Made by a program: the position numbers and the translations under genes. The notes beneath the pieces are model-generated. The model was not told where the DNA came from. It did not search any database and saw only the letters and a program-made list of their open reading frames with translations. Shown here piece after piece: positions 4,466 through 36,875 of a DNA stretch of 36,875 nucleotides. Position 1 is the stretch's first letter. Each line of letters opens with the position of its first letter. Source of the DNA: a virus (lineage: Duplodnaviria; Heunggongvirae; Uroviricota; Caudoviricetes). Where the stretch lies: IMG/VR virus record IMGVR_UViG_2700989507_000031; one strand, written 5' to 3'.

Positions 4466-4980
4466 TGTTCTTTAAAACATCAAACCCTTCCGCGCTGGCC
4501 GCGTGGAAAAAATATCAGCAGGACTGCCAGAAAGTTAAGGATGAGGCAAAACGCCTTGAGGCCGTGCTGAATGTTGCGTGCCGGTCGGTATTTGTATCCG
4601 GTATCAGTGGCTTTTGTTTTAAAGGGCTGCGCTTTATGGATGACAAATATCCTTTTCATCGCGACTTATGGCGAAAACCGACTGCGTCGAATGGCTGGAG
4701 CTGCACACCGCGCACATCACGTATTCCCAAAGCCCTGCGCGTTGCCTCTGACGAACTTAACAGTCTGTGGCGTGAATATTCGCCCGTCACGTATGCCAGA
4801 ACCGATGCCCTGTTGTTCTGGCTGGGCATTGACTTTTCAGCAATATTGCATGGTCCCGTGAAGTGGTTCTGCGTTGACGATGTTATTTACCTTCAGTGCG
4901 AAGATGATTCCGCAAAACGGAAAATGACCGAAATTCTGTCTGATGAGTTTTATGCTGCTGAAAAGCGAGTCAGGGGGTGA
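4465..4980 (+). CDS. Early-region hypothetical protein (171 aa)
   Basis: ATG overlaps the upstream stop (taATG); SD 'ggaggtgg'. Confidence 0.5.
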   Translation: MFFKTSNPSALAAWKKYQQDCQKVKDEAKRLEAVLNVACRSVFVSGISGFCFKGLRFMDDKYPFHRDLWRKPTASNGWSCTPRTSRIPKALRVASDELNSLWREYSPVTYARTDALLFWLGIDFSAILHGPVKWFCVDDVIYLQCEDDSAKRKMTEILSDEFYAAEKRVRG

Positions 4981-4983
4981 TGT

Positions 4984-5535
4984 ATGATGATTTTACAACC
5001 CATGGGGCGAAAAGGCCGTGCACCCGCTCATGTCCGTGCGTGGACACCTGAAGAAGATGCACTGCTGATTGCGCTTTATCCATCCACCCCGGTTAAGGAT
5101 ATTGCTGTCAGGGTAAAAAGAAGTTTCTGGGGTGTACATAACCGGATTGTTTTATTACGCGGTACTTACCCGGAGTTGCTCAAATGCAAACGTCCAAGAT
5201 TTAAACATGATGAAGATAAATTTATCCGAAAAAATGCCAGAACGATGACCGGTAAGCAAATAGGAGAATATCTGGGGCGAGACCGGGATTCTGTCCACAA
5301 ACGGGCGCGATATATTGGCGTAAGCATGAAAAAATACGGAGAGTTGCTGCCCTTCACCCGTATACCTGATGATGATGTTCATCTTATTCGTGAATTACGG
5401 GATGCTGAATCACCACGACGTCTTACCTTCCGGGAAATAGGCGAGAAATTTGAATTATCCGAGAGTACGGTGAATTTTATTTATCACCATCGCCGGACTG
5501 CCGAAGATGTTGTATTACGGGAGTTAATGCCATGA
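4984..5535 (+). CDS. Early-region protein with three tandem HTH-like repeats (183 aa)
   Basis: Three internally similar ~45-aa segments ('WTPEEDALLIALYPSTPVKDIAVRV', 'TGKQIGEYLGRDRDSVHKRARYIG', 'TFREIGEKFELSESTVNFIYHHRR'); SD 'aggggg'. Confidence 0.5.
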   Translation: MMILQPMGRKGRAPAHVRAWTPEEDALLIALYPSTPVKDIAVRVKRSFWGVHNRIVLLRGTYPELLKCKRPRFKHDEDKFIRKNARTMTGKQIGEYLGRDRDSVHKRARYIGVSMKKYGELLPFTRIPDDDVHLIRELRDAESPRRLTFREIGEKFELSESTVNFIYHHRRTAEDVVLRELMP

Positions 5536-5843
5536 TAACGACATTATTTGTTGAATCAGACGAGCCTCTGGTATGTGCCGCCGGAATGTCGGTTTGTGGC
5601 GGAACGCTGACCGGTGTTTATTTCGGGGATTTGCGCGGTTATCCCTGGCATTCACTGGATGACGCATTTCCGCCTGATATGGAGGCTGTCGTGCTGATTG
5701 TTCAGTATGGTGACCAACAGGAACTGCGCATCGGCCATATGGGGTATGAAGGCTTTTTTATTGATGAAGAAACCGGAGCCTGCCTTGAAGATGAGGACGG
5801 ACAGGTGACGCACTGGTGCCATATTTCAGCTTTACCGGAATGA
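5532..5843 (+). CDS. Early-region hypothetical protein (103 aa)
   Basis: ATGA overlap with the upstream gene; SD 'gggag'. Confidence 0.45.
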   Translation: MITTLFVESDEPLVCAAGMSVCGGTLTGVYFGDLRGYPWHSLDDAFPPDMEAVVLIVQYGDQQELRIGHMGYEGFFIDEETGACLEDEDGQVTHWCHISALPE

Positions 5844-6208
5844 CGGGAGGTGAGTGCGTGAGAAGTTATATTGATAATGAAAAACTGAAGACAATCAGCG
5901 ACTGTCTTAGCTTGCTGGCAAAAATAAAAGAAACCATTGAAGAGATTAAATTTCAGCTTGAATACGAACCCTGTGGCGATGATACATGGCGTAACTCTGC
6001 CAGAAAAGCACTGGCTGTCTTTCAGAAACAACGCCGGACTGTTGAATACCGCCTTGCTGTATTGCGCCAGGAGGAAAAGGAAAGAAATATAAGACGTCAT
6101 GAACTCGTTAATGATTTTCTTGTTCGTGAATTAAAGGAGCGTGTGCCGGAGTCGGTATTTTTTGAGTGTGAGGCTGTTGCCCGTAGCAAAGCACTGGAAA
6201 CTGATTAA
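5840..6208 (+). CDS. Early-region hypothetical protein, coiled-coil-like (about 117-122 aa)
   Basis: Track ORF 5816..6208 starts with GTG inside the upstream gene. More likely starts are ATG 5840 (ATGA overlap) or GTG 5858, which follows a strong SD 'gggaggtga'. Confidence 0.45.
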   Translation: MTGGECVRSYIDNEKLKTISDCLSLLAKIKETIEEIKFQLEYEPCGDDTWRNSARKALAVFQKQRRTVEYRLAVLRQEEKERNIRRHELVNDFLVRELKERVPESVFFECEAVARSKALETD

Positions 6209-6220
6209 ACAGGCAGGTGA

Positions 6221-6556
6221 ATGATGAGTATTGAATTAAGATCGTCTTATGAATATCGTAAAATTCTCATCGCCGGAGGCATGAAACCGGAAGATGCAGA
6301 AAAAATCGTTTCTTTTATGGATAAAGAATGTGACAAACGGGATATGCCAGAAATTATTATGGATGACATGATTCTGCATTCAGCCGTAGCGTTAAGCCCG
6401 TTATGGATTGTGCATTCTCTTGCTGAAATTGCCAAAGGCACCGATAAACAGGCAGCTGTTGCTGCCCTTCAGACGCTTAATGAAATGCGTATATCTCCAC
6501 GCCCGACATTAATACATATGATTCTGTCCAGCATGGAGGATAAAGCAAATGAATAG
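6221..6556 (+). CDS. Early-region hypothetical protein (111 aa)
   Basis: SD 'aggtga' upstream of ATG. Confidence 0.45.
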   Translation: MMSIELRSSYEYRKILIAGGMKPEDAEKIVSFMDKECDKRDMPEIIMDDMILHSAVALSPLWIVHSLAEIAKGTDKQAAVAALQTLNEMRISPRPTLIHMILSSMEDKANE

Positions 6557-6746
6557 TCTACCCGCTGGATGGGCGCGGCCACTAATGGCCAGGAAGCATC
6601 ATTTTTTTAAAACAGGCGAAAATATCAGTATATGTGGACGGTGGTTATATCTGGCTCATAATCGCGAGCCGGATACATTTGAAAGCCCTGATGACTGTGC
6701 CGAATGCCGCAGAAGAGTGAATAAGGAGAAAGATAATGGACAATAG
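6549..6746 (+). CDS. Early-region small Cys-containing protein (65 aa), possible zinc ribbon
   Basis: Overlaps the upstream stop; Cys pattern 'ICGRW...DDCAECRR'. Confidence 0.4.
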   Translation: MNSLPAGWARPLMARKHHFFKTGENISICGRWLYLAHNREPDTFESPDDCAECRRRVNKEKDNGQ

Positions 6747-7032
6747 TTCTCTGTTGTTCTGGTGCTTATATATCACATCCTTTTTCGGCGCATTTGTTAT
6801 TACCCGGTGGTTATGTCGAAAAATCATCTGCTTTTTTGATAAAAGACATCCGGTTGAACGGGCGGCTGATGCGCTCATTCAGCAGGCCATTGTGTTATAT
6901 AGCGGTGAATTTTTCTGCCGGATAACAACCAGAGATGGCTGGCACATAATGATTATTCCACCAACACACCATGCCCGGTGGGATGAGGCAGAAAAGGCTT
7001 TCCATGTCCGTAAAAAGGTAAATACGGTATGA
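6736..7032 (+). CDS. Early-region small protein with N-terminal hydrophobic helix (98 aa)
   Basis: SD 'aaggag'; N-terminal 'LLFWCLYITSFFGAFVIT' is TM-like. Confidence 0.45.
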   Translation: MDNSSLLFWCLYITSFFGAFVITRWLCRKIICFFDKRHPVERAADALIQQAIVLYSGEFFCRITTRDGWHIMIIPPTHHARWDEAEKAFHVRKKVNTV

Positions 7033-7538
7033 GAGGAAAACTGATATCCGCCATTCATGTGGCAAAGCGCGAGCTTGCCCTGGATGATGAGACTTATACA
7101 TCCGCGCTGCTGGCAGCCACCGGCAAAACCAGCTGCCGGGATATGTCACCGGATGAGTTATCCCGCGTGCTGGATGTTTTCAAAAAACGCGGTTTTAAAG
7201 TGCGTCAGAACCCGGTTAACCGGGCCTTAAAACCGGGTACGGTGACCGCCAAAATTCGCGCCATCTGGAAGGTGATGCACCGGCAGGGCTTTATCACCGA
7301 TGGTGCGGAAACCGCCCTTAACCGCTGGGTGAAATCGCAGACGGCCGCGCAGAACGGCGGCGAAGGTGTGGCAAACTGGCAGTGGCTGGAGCAACACCCC
7401 GCCCTGGCCTCAGATGTGCTGGAGCGTCTCAAGCGATGGCACCGCCGCAAAATGCTGGCCGCGATGGGAATGCCCGAACGCACGCTGATGGGGTATGACG
7501 CCGTTTGCAGGCAGTATGAAAAATCACTTCCCCGTTAA
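7029..7538 (+). CDS. gemA: GemA-like protein (Mu gp16 family)
   Basis: N-terminal 'KLISAIHVAKRELALDDETYTSALL...TGKTSCRDMSPDEL' is the recalled GemA hallmark; sits directly upstream of the Mor-like gene. Confidence 0.7.
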   Translation: MRGKLISAIHVAKRELALDDETYTSALLAATGKTSCRDMSPDELSRVLDVFKKRGFKVRQNPVNRALKPGTVTAKIRAIWKVMHRQGFITDGAETALNRWVKSQTAAQNGGEGVANWQWLEQHPALASDVLERLKRWHRRKMLAAMGMPERTLMGYDAVCRQYEKSLPR

Positions 7539-28853: not shown

Positions 28854-29404
28854 CCCTGACCCCGCATCAGCGCGCCCTGTTGCAGTTGCTGCCTGACGGG
28901 CTGGCATGGGATAAGCGGCCGTCATCCGTTCTTGCGGCTTTGTGCCTGGGCCTCAGTCATTCCACGGAGCGTGTTTCCTGGACCGGTAACCAGATGCTGG
29001 CAGAACGTTTTCCTGATTCATCCCGTCTGCTGCTGGAAGACTGGGAGCGTTATCTGGGGTTACCGGAATGTGATATGACCGGCGCAACCATTCAGGAACG
29101 TCAGCGTTATGCAGGGAATAAATACCGGATGAAACCCTCTCTTAACCGTGAATTTTATATCCGGTTTGCGGCAGAGTTTGGTTATGAAATAGATATTCAG
29201 CCATCACCGGATTCACAGTGGGTCAGTATTGTCACGATAAACAGTGAAACCGGCTACCGGAATATGAATGTGCTGGATGATATTCTCACCCCGCTGCGTA
29301 TTTATGAGGGTGGTGCGCTGGAATGTATTCTGAACCGTTATAAGCCTGCATGGCAGACGTTTATTTACGTGTATGCAAACAGTCACAAAGAGGAGAATAT
29401 TTAA
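28844..29404 (+). CDS. Tail protein, Mu gp48-like (gpI family)
   Basis: 186 aa; stop overlaps the tail-fibre ATG. Confidence 0.7.
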   Translation: MAVTLTPHQRALLQLLPDGLAWDKRPSSVLAALCLGLSHSTERVSWTGNQMLAERFPDSSRLLLEDWERYLGLPECDMTGATIQERQRYAGNKYRMKPSLNREFYIRFAAEFGYEIDIQPSPDSQWVSIVTINSETGYRNMNVLDDILTPLRIYEGGALECILNRYKPAWQTFIYVYANSHKEENI

Positions 29405-30315
29405 TGTTCCATGTTGATAATAATTCCGGCGTGGCGAATATGCCTGAACTGGCTCCGGCGCAGAGTAATACCACCACCTGGTTTACCGAAGGTGACGGAC
29501 AAAAAGGTATCAGCTGGATTGGTCAGGACTGGCTGAATATTCTCCAGGCCGAACTGCTGAATATTCTGGCTGAAGCCAGTATTCAGCCGGATAAGGCGCA
29601 GTTAAACCAGCTTACGCTGTCCATTAAAGCCATTATCGCTGCGAATGCCTTTTCCCGGAAAAACAACCTGAAAGAAATTGCTGATGCCGGTGCGGAAGCC
29701 CAGCGTCTGGCCCGTGGTTATCTTGGTCTGGGGACGCTTGCCACAAAAAACAGTCTTGGTCCCGCTGACGTTAATGCCCTGGCGAAGGATCAGAACCTTG
29801 CCGACCTGGAGAATGCGGAAACCGCCCGTAATAATCTGGATGTTTACAGCAGGAGCGAAGGTGATAACCGTTACCTGCGCAGGGACCAGAATGGCGCGGA
29901 TATCCAGGACAAAGGAACCTTTATCGATAACCTCGGTTTACGGGAAACGGTAAATAAGGCTGCTGATGCCCTGCCATCGGCTGGAACCGCCGTGGCAGCA
30001 AACAGACTCGCCACCCCAAGAAATATTAATGGTGTTCCTTTTGACGGAACGCTGGATATCAACATCACGTCAGGAATGACGCAGTCAACCGCAGATGGCC
30101 GGTATGTACAGAATGTTCAGCTTGGAGCACAGAGCTATCATTCACCCGGAGGCAATGAAATGTCATGGAATTACAGCGCACCTTCCGGTTGTATGCTTTC
30201 CGGTATTAACGTGCAGGAAACCGGCTCCCGGTCTGCGGACAATATCGGTGGGGTCTATTATCGCCCGGTTCAGATTTATATTAATAATGCCTGGAGAACG
30301 GTAAGTTCAGTGTAA
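29404..30315 (+). CDS. Tail fibre protein S: constant part (29404-29932) fused to variable tip Sv (29935-30315) in the present orientation
   Basis: ATG 29404 overlaps the gp48 stop; gix-like site inside the ORF at codons 'FIDNLGLRETV'; the C-terminal 123 aa are homologous to the minus-strand cassette. Confidence 0.8.
   Translation: MFHVDNNSGVANMPELAPAQSNTTTWFTEGDGQKGISWIGQDWLNILQAELLNILAEASIQPDKAQLNQLTLSIKAIIAANAFSRKNNLKEIADAGAEAQRLARGYLGLGTLATKNSLGPADVNALAKDQNLADLENAETARNNLDVYSRSEGDNRYLRRDQNGADIQDKGTFIDNLGLRETVNKAADALPSAGTAVAANRLATPRNINGVPFDGTLDINITSGMTQSTADGRYVQNVQLGAQSYHSPGGNEMSWNYSAPSGCMLSGINVQETGSRSADNIGGVYYRPVQIYINNAWRTVSSV
29921..29946. repeat. gix-like crossover site, left
   Basis: 'TTATCGATAACCTCGGTTTACGGGAA'; shares the 17-bp core 'TCCCGTAAACCGAGGTT' in inverted orientation with 31347-31372. 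Confidence 0.8.
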
Positions 30316-30325
30316 ACCACAGAAA

Positions 30326-30344
30326 AGGGTGCTGAATGCACCCT
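30326..30344. terminator. Hairpin between convergent S and U' genes (candidate bidirectional terminator)
   Basis: 'agggtgc-tgaat-gcaccct'; on the minus strand it is followed by 'ttttctg'. Confidence 0.5.
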
Positions 30345-30349
30345 CTGAA

Positions 30350-30877
30350 TTATTCCGGTTTTTCCGGCCAGGGAATCGCCTGGTAATGCCCCTCACTGGC
30401 AATATCATTAAAGTGCATTTCTTTAAGCTGTCGGATATACGCCATCCAGCGCGTCAGCTGTAATTTATTTTCATCGCTAATCATGTCCAGTTTTAATTCT
30501 GTTTTCCAGTCATCCACGGTTTCGTTGGCTTCCTGGAGCAGCGATGAGCGACGCTTTTCAGCAACCGTCTTCCAGTTTACCGGCACCTTTGATATCAGGC
30601 CATCAGAAAACTGCCAGTTACCGTCAATATTCACACCTTCCGGCAGTTCGTCCACTTCAACAACAGTAAAACCTGCCGGATATAAAGCAGAGACATCTTC
30701 AGCAACAGAGCAGATAATACCCGTTACAGGCGAAATACAGAGTTTGTATTTCTTTGTAAAAAGCGGGATAGATTCATAAAAATCCCTTCCGTCCTCACTC
30801 TGGAAATACTGAACATCCTCACCATAGGGTTTGTCTTTCGGGTAATATCGTTTGACATTAATCAGTTGCATAAACAT
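30350..30877 (-). CDS. Tail fibre assembly protein U' (serves the inverted orientation)
   Basis: C-terminal 'LTRWMAYIRQLKEMHFNDIASEGHYQAIPWPEKPE' is a tail-fibre-assembly hallmark; N-terminus 'MQLINVKRYYPKDKP' parallels Mu U. The track ORF start at 30922 adds an implausible hydrophobic leader; three ATGs at 30883, 30877 and 30871 are candidate starts. Confidence 0.75.
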   Translation of the reverse strand: MFMQLINVKRYYPKDKPYGEDVQYFQSEDGRDFYESIPLFTKKYKLCISPVTGIICSVAEDVSALYPAGFTVVEVDELPEGVNIDGNWQFSDGLISKVPVNWKTVAEKRRSSLLQEANETVDDWKTELKLDMISDENKLQLTRWMAYIRQLKEMHFNDIASEGHYQAIPWPEKPE

Positions 30878-30992
30878 CACCATGTAAATCAATGATAAAA
30901 ACAGGAATAATACTATCGCCATATACAGGCAATGCTTGTCTGAAATAACGCATATTTCAGATGCTGGCTGCTGTGTGCTATGCCCCCGTTAA

Positions 30993-31364
30993 TTAAATAC
31001 TTGCAGCGGATACCCAATGCCCATTAATACAATATTGTATCTGTCTGTAATAAACACGGTCATCACCACCACGCATTTCCCAGTCTCCGTCAGTCTTAAA
31101 ACCGGTAATCACATTTCCTGATGACAGGGAGTAATTATATTCCAGTCCGCCGCTTAATGCCTGCGCTCCCAGTCTTACCCCTGTAACATAACGCTGATTG
31201 GCCGTTGATTCCGGCATTCCTGACGTAATGTTTATATCCTGCGTGCCGTCAAAGACGACACCATTGATTCTGCGGGCATTTGCCAGCCTGCTTGCTGCAA
31301 CAGCCGTACCGTTTGATGGCAGGGCATTCGCGGCCCTGTTTACCGTATCCCGTAAACCGAGGTT
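30993..31364 (-). CDS. Silent alternative tail-fibre tip cassette Sv' (no own start; would fuse to S after inversion)
   Basis: Minus-strand frame 'NLGLRDTVNRAANALPSNGTAVAASRLA...ESTANQRYVTGVRLGAQA...' begins right after an in-frame TGA inside the right gix site. Homologous to Sv 'NLGLRETVNKAADALPSAGTAVAANRLA...QSTADGRYVQNVQLGAQS'. Confidence 0.7.
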   Translation of the reverse strand, partial: NLGLRDTVNRAANALPSNGTAVAASRLANARRINGVVFDGTQDINITSGMPESTANQRYVTGVRLGAQALSGGLEYNYSLSSGNVITGFKTDGDWEMRGGDDRVYYRQIQYCINGHWVSAASI

Positions 31365-31372
31365 TCAGGGAT
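31347..31372. repeat. gix-like crossover site, right
   Basis: 'ATCCCGTAAACCGAGGTTTCAGGGAT', inverted relative to the left site. Confidence 0.8.
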
Positions 31373-31426
31373 GCCGTATATCTGCTTTAAAAGGCTTTTC
31401 CACCTCTTTTTAAGGAAGGTAAATAC

Positions 31427-31987
31427 ATGCTGATTGGCTATATACGCGTATCAACAAATGACCAGAACACCGGTTTACAAAGAAATGCGCTGGAATGTGC
31501 AGGATGTGAGCAGATTTTTGAAGACAAAATGAGTGGTAAAACGACACAGCGGCCGGGACTGAAGCGGGCACTGAAGAAACTAAAACCCGGTGACACGCTG
31601 ATGGTCTGGAAACTGGACAGGCTGGGGCGCAGTATGCGCCACCTTGTTGCGCTGACAGATGAATTACAGCAACAGGGGATAAATTTTCGTAGTCTTACTG
31701 ACAACATTGATACGTCAACCCCCATGGGGCGCTTCTTTTTTCACATAATGGGTGCGCTGGCAGAAATGGAGCGTGAATTAATTGTCGAACGGACACGGGC
31801 TGGTCTTGCAGCTGCCCGTGAAAGGGGACGAACCGGCGGCAGACCCCGCCGTCTCACGCAGGAACAATACGAGCAGGTCGGGCGTTTACTGGCCGGGGGT
31901 GTCAGTCGAAGACAGGTGGCACTTATTTTTGATATCGGTCTTTCAACCCTTTATCGTTATTATCCTGCGAGCGTTTCGGAAAAATAA
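31427..31987 (+). CDS. gin: Serine DNA invertase, Gin/Hin/Pin/Cin family
   Basis: N-terminal 'MLIGYIRVSTNDQN' with catalytic Ser; C-terminal HTH 'GVSRRQVALIFDIGLSTLYRY'; SD 'aaggaagg'; adjacent to the invertible segment. Confidence 0.95.
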   Translation: MLIGYIRVSTNDQNTGLQRNALECAGCEQIFEDKMSGKTTQRPGLKRALKKLKPGDTLMVWKLDRLGRSMRHLVALTDELQQQGINFRSLTDNIDTSTPMGRFFFHIMGALAEMERELIVERTRAGLAAARERGRTGGRPRRLTQEQYEQVGRLLAGGVSRRQVALIFDIGLSTLYRYYPASVSEK

Positions 31988-32086: not shown

Positions 32087-34126
32087 ATGACGTCCAAATG
32101 GGTTCAACTATCATCAATGCCCGGAAACTTTACTGTTAAAGTTTCCGGTGGTACAGCGGCATTTCTTGAGGCTCCCTTTCCTCCGGCCGAAACAAAAGGA
32201 GGAATGACATTTGCTGACTGTCTCATCAGTTTTAATACACGGGATTGCCTGTGGGTAAGGCCAGTATCCGGTGATCCGAGTGTGGAAATTACCGGAGCGG
32301 GTATTGGTGCGGTCATTCCGTTAAGTGCTGATGTTGCCGGTACTGCTGAACCGTCAGACTGGGATAATGCTGAAACACATACCCGTCCGTCAGGAAATGA
32401 AACTGCTTCCAGCTCCCCTTCCTGGTATTACGTGGTGGTTCTTGCTGGTCAGTCAAACGGTATGGCTTACGGTGAAGGTCTGCCACTGCCGGAGACATAT
32501 GACCGCCCCGAACCGCGTATTATGCAGTTAGCCCGTCGCAGTACAGTCACGCCGGGAGGTAAAGCCTGTCAGTATAACGACATCATTCTGGCCGACCACT
32601 GTCTGCATGATGTGCAGGATATGAGTGGAAAAAATCACCCGAAAGCGGATGTGGCTAAAGGGCAATATGGCACCGTGGGTCAGGGGCTTCACATTGCCAA
32701 AAAACTGCTGCCGTTTATTCCGGCAGATGCGGGGATTCTGCTGGTTCCCTGCTGCCGTGGTGGTTCTGCATTCACGGCGGGTGCTGACGGCACGTACAGT
32801 GACAGCACGGGTGCTTCAGAGGACTCAGCCCGCTGGGGTGTGGATAAGCCGCTGTATAAGGACTTAATCAGCCGGACAAAAGCGGCACTGGCGAAGAACC
32901 CGAAAAACCGCCTGCTTGCTGTGGTGTGGATGCAGGGCGAGTTTGATATTGATGCGAAGCCGACGGAGCATTCTGCGCTGTTTCTGGCGATGGTGGAAAA
33001 ATTCCGCGCAGACCTGGCTGAACAGGCGGAACAGTGTACCGGTGGCAGTGCTGCTGGCGTTCCGTGGATTTGTGGCGATACCACGTATTTCTGGAAACAG
33101 AAAAATGAACCAGCATACCAGGCAATCTATGGCGGCTACAAAAACAAAACAGATAAAAACATTCATTTCGTTCCATTAATAACAGATGAAAATGGCGTGA
33201 ATGTACCCACCAACAATCCGGCAGAAGACCCGGATATTGAATCCATTGGTTATTACGGCTCAACGTGGCGTAACAGTGCCGCTACCTGGACATCTGCGGA
33301 CCGGGCCAGCCATTTCAGTGCCTGGGCGCGCCGGGGTATTATTTCTGACCGTCTGGCCACGGCTGTTCTGACTCATGCAGGGCGAACCACAGTAAAAGCC
33401 GATGTTCCATCTTCTGAAACTGAAGCACCAGTGCCATCACCTTCAGAAACTGAAGCAGTAACCACAACACTGCTGTCTTACCGTGTCAGTGAGTCAGAAG
33501 GAAATCTGAAAGCCCAGGGCTGGGAGCCGGCTGGCGGTAAAGCTGAAATTATCAGTGATGCAGGAGGCACAGGTGGTAAGGCAATGAAACTGACCAAGGA
33601 AACAGGTAAATCATCCTGGTATCTGGATCATGATGCCGGTACTGGTGCTGAACTGCTGAAAAATGGTGGTTTAATCAGTTGTCGTTTTAAAGTACCTGGC
33701 GACCTGGTGGCAAACCAGTATGTCATGGCGCTTTACTGGCCGGTTTCCTCTCTGCCGCAGGGTGTCACCCTGACAGGGGATGCAGGGAATAATCTGCTGG
33801 CATCGTTCTACATCCAGACAGACGCAAAAGACCTGAATGTGATGTACCACAATGCAAAAGTGGCAACAAATAACCAGAAACTGGGAACCTTTGGTGCATT
33901 TGATAATGAATGGCATACGCTGGCCTTCCGTTTTGCAGGAAATAACAGCCTTCAGGTTATTCCGGTTATTGATGGTCAGGATGGTGCCGCGTTTACCCTG
34001 ACGCAGTCACCAGTAGGAACTTTCCCGGTGGACAAACTCCGCGTAACGGATATCACCAAAAATGCAACTTACCCGGTGCTGATTGACAGCATTGTGGTGG
34101 AAGTGAAAAAAGCGGTAACAGAATAA
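32087..34126 (+). CDS. Multi-domain SGNH/SASA-like carbohydrate esterase (N-terminal ~110-aa domain, esterase core, S/T/E/P linker, C-terminal beta-sandwich-like domain)
   Basis: Esterase block 'YYVVVLAGQSNGMAYGEG' (GQSN motif); linker 'SSETEAPVPSPSETEAVTTT'; no N-terminal signal peptide; SD-like sequence upstream. Confidence 0.6.
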   Translation: MTSKWVQLSSMPGNFTVKVSGGTAAFLEAPFPPAETKGGMTFADCLISFNTRDCLWVRPVSGDPSVEITGAGIGAVIPLSADVAGTAEPSDWDNAETHTRPSGNETASSSPSWYYVVVLAGQSNGMAYGEGLPLPETYDRPEPRIMQLARRSTVTPGGKACQYNDIILADHCLHDVQDMSGKNHPKADVAKGQYGTVGQGLHIAKKLLPFIPADAGILLVPCCRGGSAFTAGADGTYSDSTGASEDSARWGVDKPLYKDLISRTKAALAKNPKNRLLAVVWMQGEFDIDAKPTEHSALFLAMVEKFRADLAEQAEQCTGGSAAGVPWICGDTTYFWKQKNEPAYQAIYGGYKNKTDKNIHFVPLITDENGVNVPTNNPAEDPDIESIGYYGSTWRNSAATWTSADRASHFSAWARRGIISDRLATAVLTHAGRTTVKADVPSSETEAPVPSPSETEAVTTTLLSYRVSESEGNLKAQGWEPAGGKAEIISDAGGTGGKAMKLTKETGKSSWYLDHDAGTGAELLKNGGLISCRFKVPGDLVANQYVMALYWPVSSLPQGVTLTGDAGNNLLASFYIQTDAKDLNVMYHNAKVATNNQKLGTFGAFDNEWHTLAFRFAGNNSLQVIPVIDGQDGAAFTLTQSPVGTFPVDKLRVTDITKNATYPVLIDSIVVEVKKAVTE

Positions 34127-35447: not shown

Positions 35448-35625
35448 GATCCTACCTTCACTGGATAAAAAGTCAATAAAATGATCATTTTATGATCGTT
35501 TTCACCACCTAACTCTTCGTTTTCTTTAAGTAAATAATCACCGTCCTGAATCATTGTTGATGACTTTTAAATCTATTTGTTGTATCAATTAAACAAATCG
35601 AATCGATCGTTTTTGTCGATCGATT
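35448..35625 (+). promoter_or_regulatory. AT-rich control region with five GATC sites upstream of com
   Basis: GATC at 35448, 35483, 35494, 35605 and 35618. Direct repeat 'atgatcatttt/atgatcgtttt'; palindromic pair 'aatcgatcg' (35601-35609) and 'cgatcgatt' (35617-35625). Confidence 0.45.
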
Positions 35626-35668
35626 GCATGAGAAAGGCATCAACAACAAAGCAGGAGGTTATGCGGCC

Positions 35669-35854
35669 ATGTATCGAAACATACGGTGCCGACACTGCAA
35701 TAAGCTACTGGCACGGGCCAGTTTCAGTTATCTGGAAGTAAAATGTCCGCGCTGTAAAACCCTCAATCAAATCACATCTCAGAGCGCCACAGAGCACCCC
35801 ACATACACAAGGAAATCCTGCCGTGGGGAACAAGAAACATTACTTTCAGTCTGA
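35669..35854 (+). CDS. com: Com-like zinc-finger translational regulator
   Basis: 'MYRNIRCRHCNKLLARASFSYLEVKCPRCKTL' parallels Mu Com 'IRCKNCNKLL...IRCPRCK' as recalled; SD 'aggagg' 10 nt before ATG; 3' end overlaps the downstream gene by 32 nt, as com overlaps mom in Mu. Confidence 0.7.
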   Translation: MYRNIRCRHCNKLLARASFSYLEVKCPRCKTLNQITSQSATEHPTYTRKSCRGEQETLLSV

Positions 35855-36875
35855 TAAGTCACTAACCTATGGTTCAGTATGCAGTGGTATTGAAGCTGCG
35901 ACAGTAGCCTGGAGCAATCTTGGCTGGAAAGCCAGATGGTTCAGTGAAATAGAGGACTTCCCGTCAACACTTCTTTCATATCGCTGGCCCCATATACCAA
36001 ATCTTGGTGATATGGCTTTGCTTGCGCCTCGTATCAGGGATGGGCTTATTGAAGCACCAGATATTCTTGTAGGTGGAACTCCGTGTCAGGCATTCAGTAT
36101 GTCAGGCAAACGAAAAGGCCTTTCAGATCCACGGGGGCAGTTAACACTGTCTTTTGTTGAACTGGCGAATCAGATAGATACCGTTCGGGCATCGCTCAAT
36201 AAATCCCCCTCAATAATCGTATGGGAAAACGTCACAGGAGTTTTAAGTAGCCATGACAATGCATTCGGTCATTTTCTTGGTGCGCTGGCCGGAGCAGGTT
36301 GCGCATTACAGCCAGCAAGGAAAAGATGGGCAAACGCTGGTGTTGTGTCTGGACCATCGCGTATCGTCGCCTGGCGAGTACTTGATGCCCAATATTTCGG
36401 AGTCGCCCAGGCTCGCAGAAGAGTGTTTGTTGTGGCAAGTGCTGGAAAAAGGCTCGATCCCGGAAAGGTATTATTTGAGTTCCCGCCTGTGTCGCAGGGC
36501 GATAAAAACTATTATGGAAAGAAGAAAAAATCCGAATCCCTTCTTGATCAAGGCATTGAAGGAAAATTGCACCGATATTGCCTTGAAGCATTGCCAAAAC
36601 GAACAGGCACAGTAATAGCTGGCTATAACGGAACAACTAACCAGGACATGACTATGTCTGGTGGGCTCATAGTTGAAAGAGCACCATATTCAAGGGTTCG
36701 TAGGTTGACGCCAACCGAATGCGAGAGGCTACAAGGTTTTCCCGATGGATATACAGATATTCCATGGAAAAATTCATCTCCAGCTCATCGTTATAAGGCC
36801 ATTGGAAATTCAATGCCTGTACCGGTCATGAAATGGATTGGTCGAAGAATACAGGAAGCGTTAAACGAAGTTTAA
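35823..36875 (+). CDS. DNA (cytosine-5) methyltransferase
   Basis: Motif I-like 'YGSVCSGIEAA', catalytic PCQ motif 'GGTPCQAFSMSGK', motif VI 'IIVWENVTGVL'; stop TAA ends the window. GTG start inferred from the track. Confidence 0.85.
   Translation: MGNKKHYFQSDKSLTYGSVCSGIEAATVAWSNLGWKARWFSEIEDFPSTLLSYRWPHIPNLGDMALLAPRIRDGLIEAPDILVGGTPCQAFSMSGKRKGLSDPRGQLTLSFVELANQIDTVRASLNKSPSIIVWENVTGVLSSHDNAFGHFLGALAGAGCALQPARKRWANAGVVSGPSRIVAWRVLDAQYFGVAQARRRVFVVASAGKRLDPGKVLFEFPPVSQGDKNYYGKKKKSESLLDQGIEGKLHRYCLEALPKRTGTVIAGYNGTTNQDMTMSGGLIVERAPYSRVRRLTPTECERLQGFPDGYTDIPWKNSSPAHRYKAIGNSMPVPVMKWIGRRIQEALNEV

Follow-up and report, generated by a model that had tools for sequence, protein, structure and literature searches.

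Introduction

Tail fibres are a recognised class of targets of programmed DNA inversion (PMC9881135; PMC4272514). Here a locus of this kind is described in a stretch of viral DNA of 36,875 nucleotides (Caudoviricetes; IMG/VR record IMGVR_UViG_2700989507_000031). The whole stretch is called the window below. The locus consists of a tail-fibre gene with two exchangeable C-terminal tips, a single tail-fibre assembly gene (tfa), two recombination sites and an invertase gene. With high confidence we regard it as homologous to the Mu G segment with its invertase Gin and as the host-range switch of a Mu-like Escherichia coli prophage of the Sp18 type. Switches of this kind are already known, and for Sp18 itself an invertible host-specificity region was reported in a single sentence (Asadulghani et al. 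2009, PMC2669165). In the same study Sp18 was reported as intact, its DNA was packaged and Mu-like particles were seen (PMC2669165).

In phage Mu (AF083977) the G segment occupies the same position as the segment described here, after the gp47/gp48 baseplate homologues and before invertase and com. The crossover lies in the same fibre motif, FI(Q/D)NLGL(Q/R)ETVN (FIQNLGLQETVN). The constant part of the fibre is homologous over approximately 190 amino acids, and the distal domain of Mu S has a homologue in one of the two tips, tip B. In other respects the two loci differ. The segment of Mu, with boundaries annotated in AF083977, measures 3,059 bp, compared with 1,426 bp here. The Mu fibre has 504 amino acids, whereas the fibres of this locus have 303 or 298 and lack about 230 residues of the shaft of Mu S. 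Mu encodes the two assembly proteins U and U' where one tfa is present here, and the gap between fibre gene and tfa is 2 bp in Mu compared with a spacer of 121 nt. S and S' are poorly alignable, whereas the tips of the present fibre are homologous (54% identity).

The same principle is realised in the P segment of e14 with Pin and in the C segment of P1 with Cin, where an invertase lies beside a segment exchanging fibre C-termini. Their sites have an AA core, unlike those described here. Both segments contain two tfa genes each, compared with one in this locus. The element that hosts the e14 segment is a defective lambdoid one; in P1 the repeats measure 0.6 kb. For Hin of Salmonella with its hix sites the recombinase subfamily and the design of the 26-bp sites are the same, and the helix-turn-helix (HTH) domain of Hin matches residues 138-184 of the invertase. 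What Hin inverts is a promoter instead of a coding segment, and its sites have an AA core. The e14 P segment is also small with 1,797 bp (PMC12529663). The B segment of Shigella boydii with PinB (D00660) was compared with this locus by its sites. Its bixL, TTCCTGTAAACC GA GGTATTCGATAA, is identical to the left site of the window at 23 of 26 positions, and the GA core is alike. About 3.2 kb are listed between the bix sites, hence this segment is not compact.

Gene order and gene lengths are as in Sp18 of strain Sakai (ECs_4984-4995). A fibre gene of 912 bp, a tfa of 522 bp on the opposite strand and a silent tip are followed there by an invertase gene of 561 bp and a 2,040-bp gene with a domain of unknown function (DUF6645), as in the window. 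The Sakai fibre ECs_4989 is 97% identical to the window fibre. At least 80% of window positions 12000-36875 are covered in approximately 209 complete E. coli genomes. The closest of them shows 98.8% identity over 98% of this range, and none is identical. Judged by these similarities, the element is assigned to the Sp18-type Mu-like prophages of E. coli. Sakai Sp18 differs in the left site, which reads AACG|TC (Val for Leu178) instead of AACC|TC, and by a 738-bp gene for a 'DNA modification protein' in place of Com and a C5 cytosine methylase at the right end of the window.

Elements of the Sp18 type occur in about 4% of the complete E. coli genomes (209/5,426), many of which belong to Shiga-toxin producers. 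The orientation of the segment would decide which fibre is found on the released phage and bears on the strains that can be reached by this transposable phage. CP066032, for which a Mu-type inversion was confirmed by long reads (Milman et al. 2023), was considered as well. Its G segment has two tfa and is of the canonical Mu-like form, and it was set aside as not being this element.

Recombination sites and invertase

The segment is enclosed by two 26-bp gix-type sites in inverted orientation. The left site (29921-29946) reads TTATCGATAACC|TC|GGTTTACGGGAA with the crossover dinucleotide at 29933-29934. The right site (31347-31372) reads ATCCCGTAAACC|GA|GGTTTCAGGGAT on the plus strand, with the crossover dinucleotide at 31359-31360, and ATCCCTGAAACC|TC|GGTTTACGGGAT on the reverse strand. 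The core is TC on the plus strand at the left site and GA on the plus strand at the right site, where TC lies on the minus strand. The sites are therefore inverted in cis with identical core dinucleotides, as needed for religation. From centre to centre the invertible segment comprises 1,426 bp (29934-31359), and the outer edges of the sites are 1,452 bp apart. An earlier reading of the DNA by a model, made without database searches (sequence-only reading), had proposed two inverted imperfect palindromes of 26 bp around about 1.45 kb, and both are found at this distance.

A 17-mer common to both sites, AACCTCGGTTTACGGGA, occurs in exactly two copies in the 36.9-kb window, one per strand. When up to three mismatches were allowed, the search of the whole window still gave two matches, compared with 0.08 expected from shuffled sequences. 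The inverted repeat continues inwards in arms of 179 nt with 75% complementarity, because both arms encode homologous protein.

For the comparison with Din-family sites a published table was used (PMC3241671), and Mu gixL and gixR were aligned in addition. In the notation of this table the left site is TTCCCGTAAACC GA GGTTATCGATAA. It is identical to gixL at 23 of 26 positions, as it is to bixL, whereas the right site shares 19 of 26 positions with gixL. The half-sites are symmetrical at 8 of 12 positions in the left and at 10 of 12 in the right site. A GA core is found in gix and bix and an AA core in hix, cix, pix and mix (PMC3241671). Both sites show the design of the Din family, with imperfect inverted half-sites of 12 bp around a 2-bp core and the consensus …AAACC NA GGTTT….

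The gene at 31427-31987 (plus strand) encodes a Gin-type serine DNA invertase of 186 amino acids, which begins MLIGYIRVSTNDQ and carries the catalytic Ser9. Pfam domains Resolvase (1.4e-51) and HTH_7 (1.7e-14) were detected. Over its full length the protein matches the crystal structures of Gin (PDB 3UJ3/4M6F, 2e-91), with Ser9 aligned to the catalytic Ser9 of Gin, and its identity with Mu Gin is 76%. It has the make-up of a Din-family recombinase, a small serine recombinase of approximately 190 amino acids with an N-terminal catalytic domain and a C-terminal HTH. Thus, the Gin/Hin-type serine invertase of the sequence-only reading was identified, including the serine whose absence would have spoken against it.

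The same reading had described the locus as a divergent, compact version of the principle known from Mu G, P1 C and e14 P. Compactness was found, limited to the fibre module, but divergence was not. With 23 of 26 positions shared between left site and gixL and 76% identity between invertase and Gin, the recombination machinery is not divergent. By these comparisons it is close to that of Mu, and only the fibre module is different and compact.

Fibre gene and tips

In the orientation of the window, termed orientation A, the tail-fibre gene extends from the ATG at 29404 to 30315 on the plus strand and encodes 303 amino acids, as seen from open reading frame (ORF) and translation. The left site falls within this ORF at ...GTFIDNLGLRETVN..., which agrees with the proposed location at FIDNLGLRETV. 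Fibre codons 1-177 (29404-29934, plus strand) form the constant part Sc. The expressed variable C-terminus, tip A, is encoded at 29935-30315 (plus strand; GLRETVN...RTVSSV). The silent tip B (30993-31358, minus strand; GLRDTVN...VSAASI) comprises 121 amino acids and has no start codon of its own. In its frame the right site contains, in its outer half, the minus-strand codon TGA (31367-31365). NLGLRDTVN... follows in frame up to the stop at 30993, and no start codon was found before an internal Met at 31217. The tips are 54% identical, with the greatest divergence in the distal approximately 60 residues. A homologous second C-terminus on the minus strand, start-less and placed after an in-frame TGA, had been described in this form before any search was made.

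Counted from the first differing residue (E181), tip A has 123 and tip B 118 amino acids; the predicted swap of a 123-aa tip holds. After inversion in silico the frame was kept, and the fusion of Sc and tip B gave a fibre of 298 amino acids. The locus is organised as a G-type segment, with a site within the fibre ORF, a constant N-terminus encoded outside the segment and two C-termini in frame on opposite strands. An own co-oriented assembly gene per tip is not present, since one tfa was found compared with two in Mu.

Residues 1-198 of the fibre match residues 1-191 of S, the tail fibre of Mu (PDB 5YVQ/9KI1, domain E 5e-43). At its C-terminus tip A (fibre residues 229-302) matches Mu S 435-503 weakly (8e-5) and residues 483-553 of the 'short tail fiber' PDB 9CUY better (1e-15). 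In tip B the C-terminal, distal approximately 70 residues match Mu S 436-503 strongly (7e-20). The genes upstream of the fibre gene encode a Mu-type baseplate with Baseplate_J and a homologue of Mu Gp48.

The ratio of non-synonymous to synonymous substitution rates (dN/dS) was determined between the window and an 84%-identical element of strain FWSEC0008. It amounts to 0.13 for tip A (19 synonymous vs 9 non-synonymous changes), which is silent in FWSEC0008, to 0.18 for tip B and to 0.03 for the invertase. These values show purifying selection on the invertase and on both tips; the two tips are maintained as coding sequence.

The expressed tip of FWSEC0008 (1956-2322) is chimeric. Its first approximately 45 residues are tip A-like and the remainder is tip B-like, which indicates a gene conversion between the inverted arms. 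The elements of FWSEC0008 and the window also form a mosaic of modules, with tfa only 64% and the tips 89-97% identical.

Both orientations in sequenced genomes

Both isomers (2,651 bp) were searched against 5,426 complete E. coli genomes, with at least 80% coverage as cut-off for a match. The window orientation was found in 183 records and the inverted isomer, orientation B, in 26. In O157:H7 strain F7508 the region is 100% identical to the window in the window orientation. The inverted isomer was matched in one piece over 100% of the 2,651 bp with 99.9% identity in strains AUSMDU00014361 and 61_150228, and likewise in a single piece with 100% coverage and 99.0% identity in O157:H7 Z869. In junction alignments of the inverted genomes the left outer flank is joined to the right inner flank of the window, and conversely. 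The exchange took place within the identical 17-bp core; the first diagnostic base past the core (A or T, 1 bp beyond) is already switched. Inversion isomers, as expected from the sequence-only reading, are thus present in public genomes, with recombinant junctions in the core.

Furthermore, among the proteins found in a search with tip A many were 'partial' and came from draft-assembly contigs of about 1.4 kb. Stand-alone contigs of 1,403-1,441 bp from at least five assemblies or runs were inspected (NCBI GCA_001606895.1 and GCA_036438075.1; Logan assemblies SRR5031206, SRR9914001 and SRR7656618). Their content is tip, tfa and tip only. They terminate at the site centres, from CGGTTTACGGG to CCCGTAAACCG in one contig (L052) and from AACCTCGGTTT to AAACCGAGGTT in another (L054). 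As the break lies exactly at the 17-bp core, which is shorter than usual assembly k-mers, both junctions were probably contained in the reads. Mixed orientations within the sequenced cultures would best explain these breaks at the site centres. Short-read assemblies fragment at both sites, and contigs of about 1.4 kb with 'partial' tip proteins are a usable signature by which active invertible segments can be found in draft assemblies. In nature, recombination at precisely these two sites has repeatedly inverted the segment.

The segment could also be inverted by RecA-dependent homologous recombination between the arms instead of by the invertase at the 26-bp sites. The arms have a length of 179 nt with 75% identity, and from the chimeric tip B of FWSEC0008 it is evident that they do undergo homologous exchange or gene conversion. 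However, the exchange in the inverted genomes lies inside the 17-bp core, the sole long identical stretch, and the single-nucleotide polymorphism 1 bp past the core is switched. The contigs end exactly at the central dinucleotide. An identity of 75% with a perfect match of at most 17 bp is below the requirement of RecA, which counts against this route as well. We consider it extremely unlikely.

A polymorphism was observed beside the crossover at 29932, where the window has AACC|TC and Sakai, Z869 and FWSEC0008 have AACG|TC (Leu178Val). For SfMu a similar change beside the crossover was proposed to block inversion (PMC4406740). The AACG|TC variant was found in both orientations, A in Sakai and B in Z869 and FWSEC0008; hence inversion is probably not blocked by it. 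This change is one of two arguments for regarding repeats and silent tip as leftovers of an ancestral G-type segment that has lost inversion. The other is that many O157 prophages are defective (PMC2669165). In contrast, both orientations occur with precise junctions among copies of 99-99.9% identity, assemblies break at the site centres, and the invertase is intact with its dN/dS of 0.03. The site of the window is unmutated, and the variant itself occurs in both orientations. A fossil segment is hardly conceivable with these data.

The inversion is proposed to proceed as for Gin, Hin and Cin. The Gin-like invertase would bind both gix-type sites, presumably assisted, by analogy with Gin and Hin, by host Fis acting at an enhancer within the 5' region of the invertase gene. 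Cleavage at the central TC/GA (29933-34 and 31359-60) with subunit rotation would then invert the 1,426 bp. The 177-180 N-terminal residues of the fibre, which are expected to fix it to the baseplate, have their codons outside the segment and would stay constant. Tip A with 123 amino acids would be exchanged for the Mu S tip-like tip B with 118, and virions from the two prophage states would recognise different surface receptors.

The single assembly gene

The tfa gene (30350-30871, minus strand) encodes a tail-fibre assembly protein (chaperone) of 173 amino acids with the Pfam domain Caudo_TAP (1.9e-18). The product matches Mu U (PDB 5YVQ_B, 1e-15), with 29-30% identity to both U and U' of Mu. 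The gene has the orientation of the silent tip B and converges on tip A. Among the ORFs of the segment no chaperone match was found after tip A by ORF and Pfam scan. Between the convergent tip A and tfa a consensus scan detected a G+C-rich hairpin followed by a T-run, which is terminator-like (30324-30346, minus strand). The stop of tip B and the start of tfa are separated by an AT-rich spacer of 121 nt (30872-30992, minus strand), a candidate for an internal promoter.

Such a layout could be an on/off switch. Only in orientation B, with Sc-tip B and tfa co-transcribed, would assembled fibres be formed, and orientation A would give fibre protein lacking its chaperone and hence fibreless, non-infective particles. 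The single Caudo_TAP gene co-oriented with tip B only and the terminator-like hairpin between tip A and tfa are in line with this, as is the lack of a sigma-70 consensus promoter or a Mu C-box in the region upstream of tfa. Grundy and Howe reportedly found in 1984 that Mu needs U or U' for its fibres (cited in PMC4272514), which also counts for an on/off switch. On the other side, tip A is under purifying selection (dN/dS 0.13) even where it is silent, and complete genomes show orientation A more often than B (183 vs 26). In Citrobacter braakii the convergent layout with a single tfa is kept, and tfa is linked there to an A-class tip. Finally, a -10-like hexamer is located 34-35 nt before the tfa start in three spacers that cannot be aligned. 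In general, an on/off switch is unlikely.

The hexamers in these spacers, which come from E. coli and Citrobacter variants, are TATTAT, TATGAT and TATAAT; in the window TATTAT is at 30912-30907 (minus strand), 35 nt before the ATG of tfa. The chance of a -10-like hexamer at that spot was 0.03-0.08 per spacer in shuffles, a weak signal noticed post hoc. As a model of the Mu late (C-dependent) promoter, the four annotated Mu late promoters were aligned, which gave the common box CCATAACCCC. The window regions upstream of lys, I and com were inspected, and the whole window was searched for 11-mers occurring in the tfa spacer; neither gave a common motif. TTAACGGGGGCATAG was considered as a lookalike of the C site of Pmom and was dropped because of wrong strand or register. 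Upstream of tfa the spacer contains the palindrome CTGAAATA-N5-TATTTCAG (30960-30940, minus strand). As an operator it was rejected, as FWSEC0008 changes both arms and leaves a mismatch.

The layout with a single tfa was also found in FWSEC0008 and in FORC_044, the latter with a different tip and a spacer of 79 nt. For more distant relatives a fibre scan with one genome per species was made. It gave two informative relatives, C. braakii and Edwardsiella anguillarum; matches in other species were confined to the common fibre repeat motif NINGVxFDGT. The locus of E. anguillarum stops at a contig edge. C. braakii ATCC 51113 (4819-7223) has a single tfa on the opposite strand (229 amino acids), a fibre of 472 amino acids and a spacer of 69 nt. 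Between fibre and tfa lies a hairpin with a perfect 17-bp stem, in a position analogous to that of the window hairpin, and the tfa-linked tip is the A-class silent tip. This recurrence in FWSEC0008, FORC_044 and C. braakii indicates that the single-tfa layout is no accident of the window copy. Three gix-like sites were observed in C. braakii (approximately 4819-4852, 6823-6857 and 7190-7223), which may allow more than two arrangements.

Probably, tfa is expressed independently of orientation and serves both mutually homologous tips. Tip A may also fold without tfa, or orientation A may be an 'off' state. More tentatively, the locus can be read as a minimal G-type switch of the type 'one chaperone, two tips', in which tfa has its own activator-dependent promoter inside the segment; we hold this to be possible, with the odds somewhat against it. 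If true, the one chaperone would be supplied in both orientations and would fold either tip, and the size of the switch would be halved. To our knowledge, no such design has been described. The single-tfa layout is the one aspect of the locus which might repay experiments.

Assessment as a probable host-range switch

The fibre-derived protein could have been domesticated by the host, as in e14 with PinQ, and serve the bacterium, e.g. by blocking the adsorption of other phages. In e14 the PinQ-driven inversion of the P segment yields StfE2, which blocks adsorption of T2 (PMC12529663), and many Pin-type invertases are present in O157 strains, which could act in trans. In contrast to e14, a defective remnant, Sp18 was reported as intact, packaged and particle-forming (PMC2669165). 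The element considered here lies within a complete Mu-like late operon with baseplate J, gp48 homologue and fibre. Domestication is therefore very unlikely.

Some points weigh against the interpretation as a host-range switch homologous to the Mu G segment. The right site is more distant from gix in its outer half (19/26). One tfa instead of two is present, it is antisense to the fibre operon in the window orientation, and no clear promoter was found in its upstream region, with neither a sigma-70 consensus match nor a Mu C-box. Gin, Hin and Cin require a Fis-dependent enhancer in cis, located in the 5' region of their own genes. Compared with Mu gin in steps of 30 nt, the 5' 240 nt of the present gene show 53-87% identity. 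The best Fis-like 15-mers of Mu (94-108 and 140-154) are conserved in part only, and the first lacks its terminal C. A dependence on Fis and enhancer would follow by analogy. Inversion of the window's own copy is deduced from near-identical copies, and a different receptor specificity or host range of the tips is expected from Mu and P1.

Neighbouring genes and annotation

The automatic annotation of the fibre locus is poor. In RefSeq the fibre is a 'hypothetical protein', and the silent tip is either unannotated or an 'incomplete' pseudogene, depending on the orientation. A spurious short 'hypothetical protein' is annotated antisense to the silent tip at 31198-31413 (plus strand; 21879-22064 in L001).

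A tRNA scan of the window gave no hit. Between invertase and com region, positions 32087-34126 (plus strand) encode a protein of 679 amino acids with a SASA carbohydrate-esterase domain (PF03629, 6.7e-12) and DUF6645 (4e-70). The gene is kept in Sp18 (ECs_4993) and relatives and has no counterpart in Mu. The product could be a receptor-modifying enzyme, or the gene a moron.

At the right end (35624-36875, plus strand) a gene for a Com zinc-ribbon (PF10122, 1e-12) precedes that for a C5 cytosine DNA methylase (PF00145, 1.6e-42), which is cut off by the end of the window. The position of the methylase is occupied by Mom in Mu and by the 738-bp 'DNA modification protein' in Sakai Sp18 and F7508. 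Com and methylase look like an anti-restriction module that was swapped, with a Com-type regulator in control.

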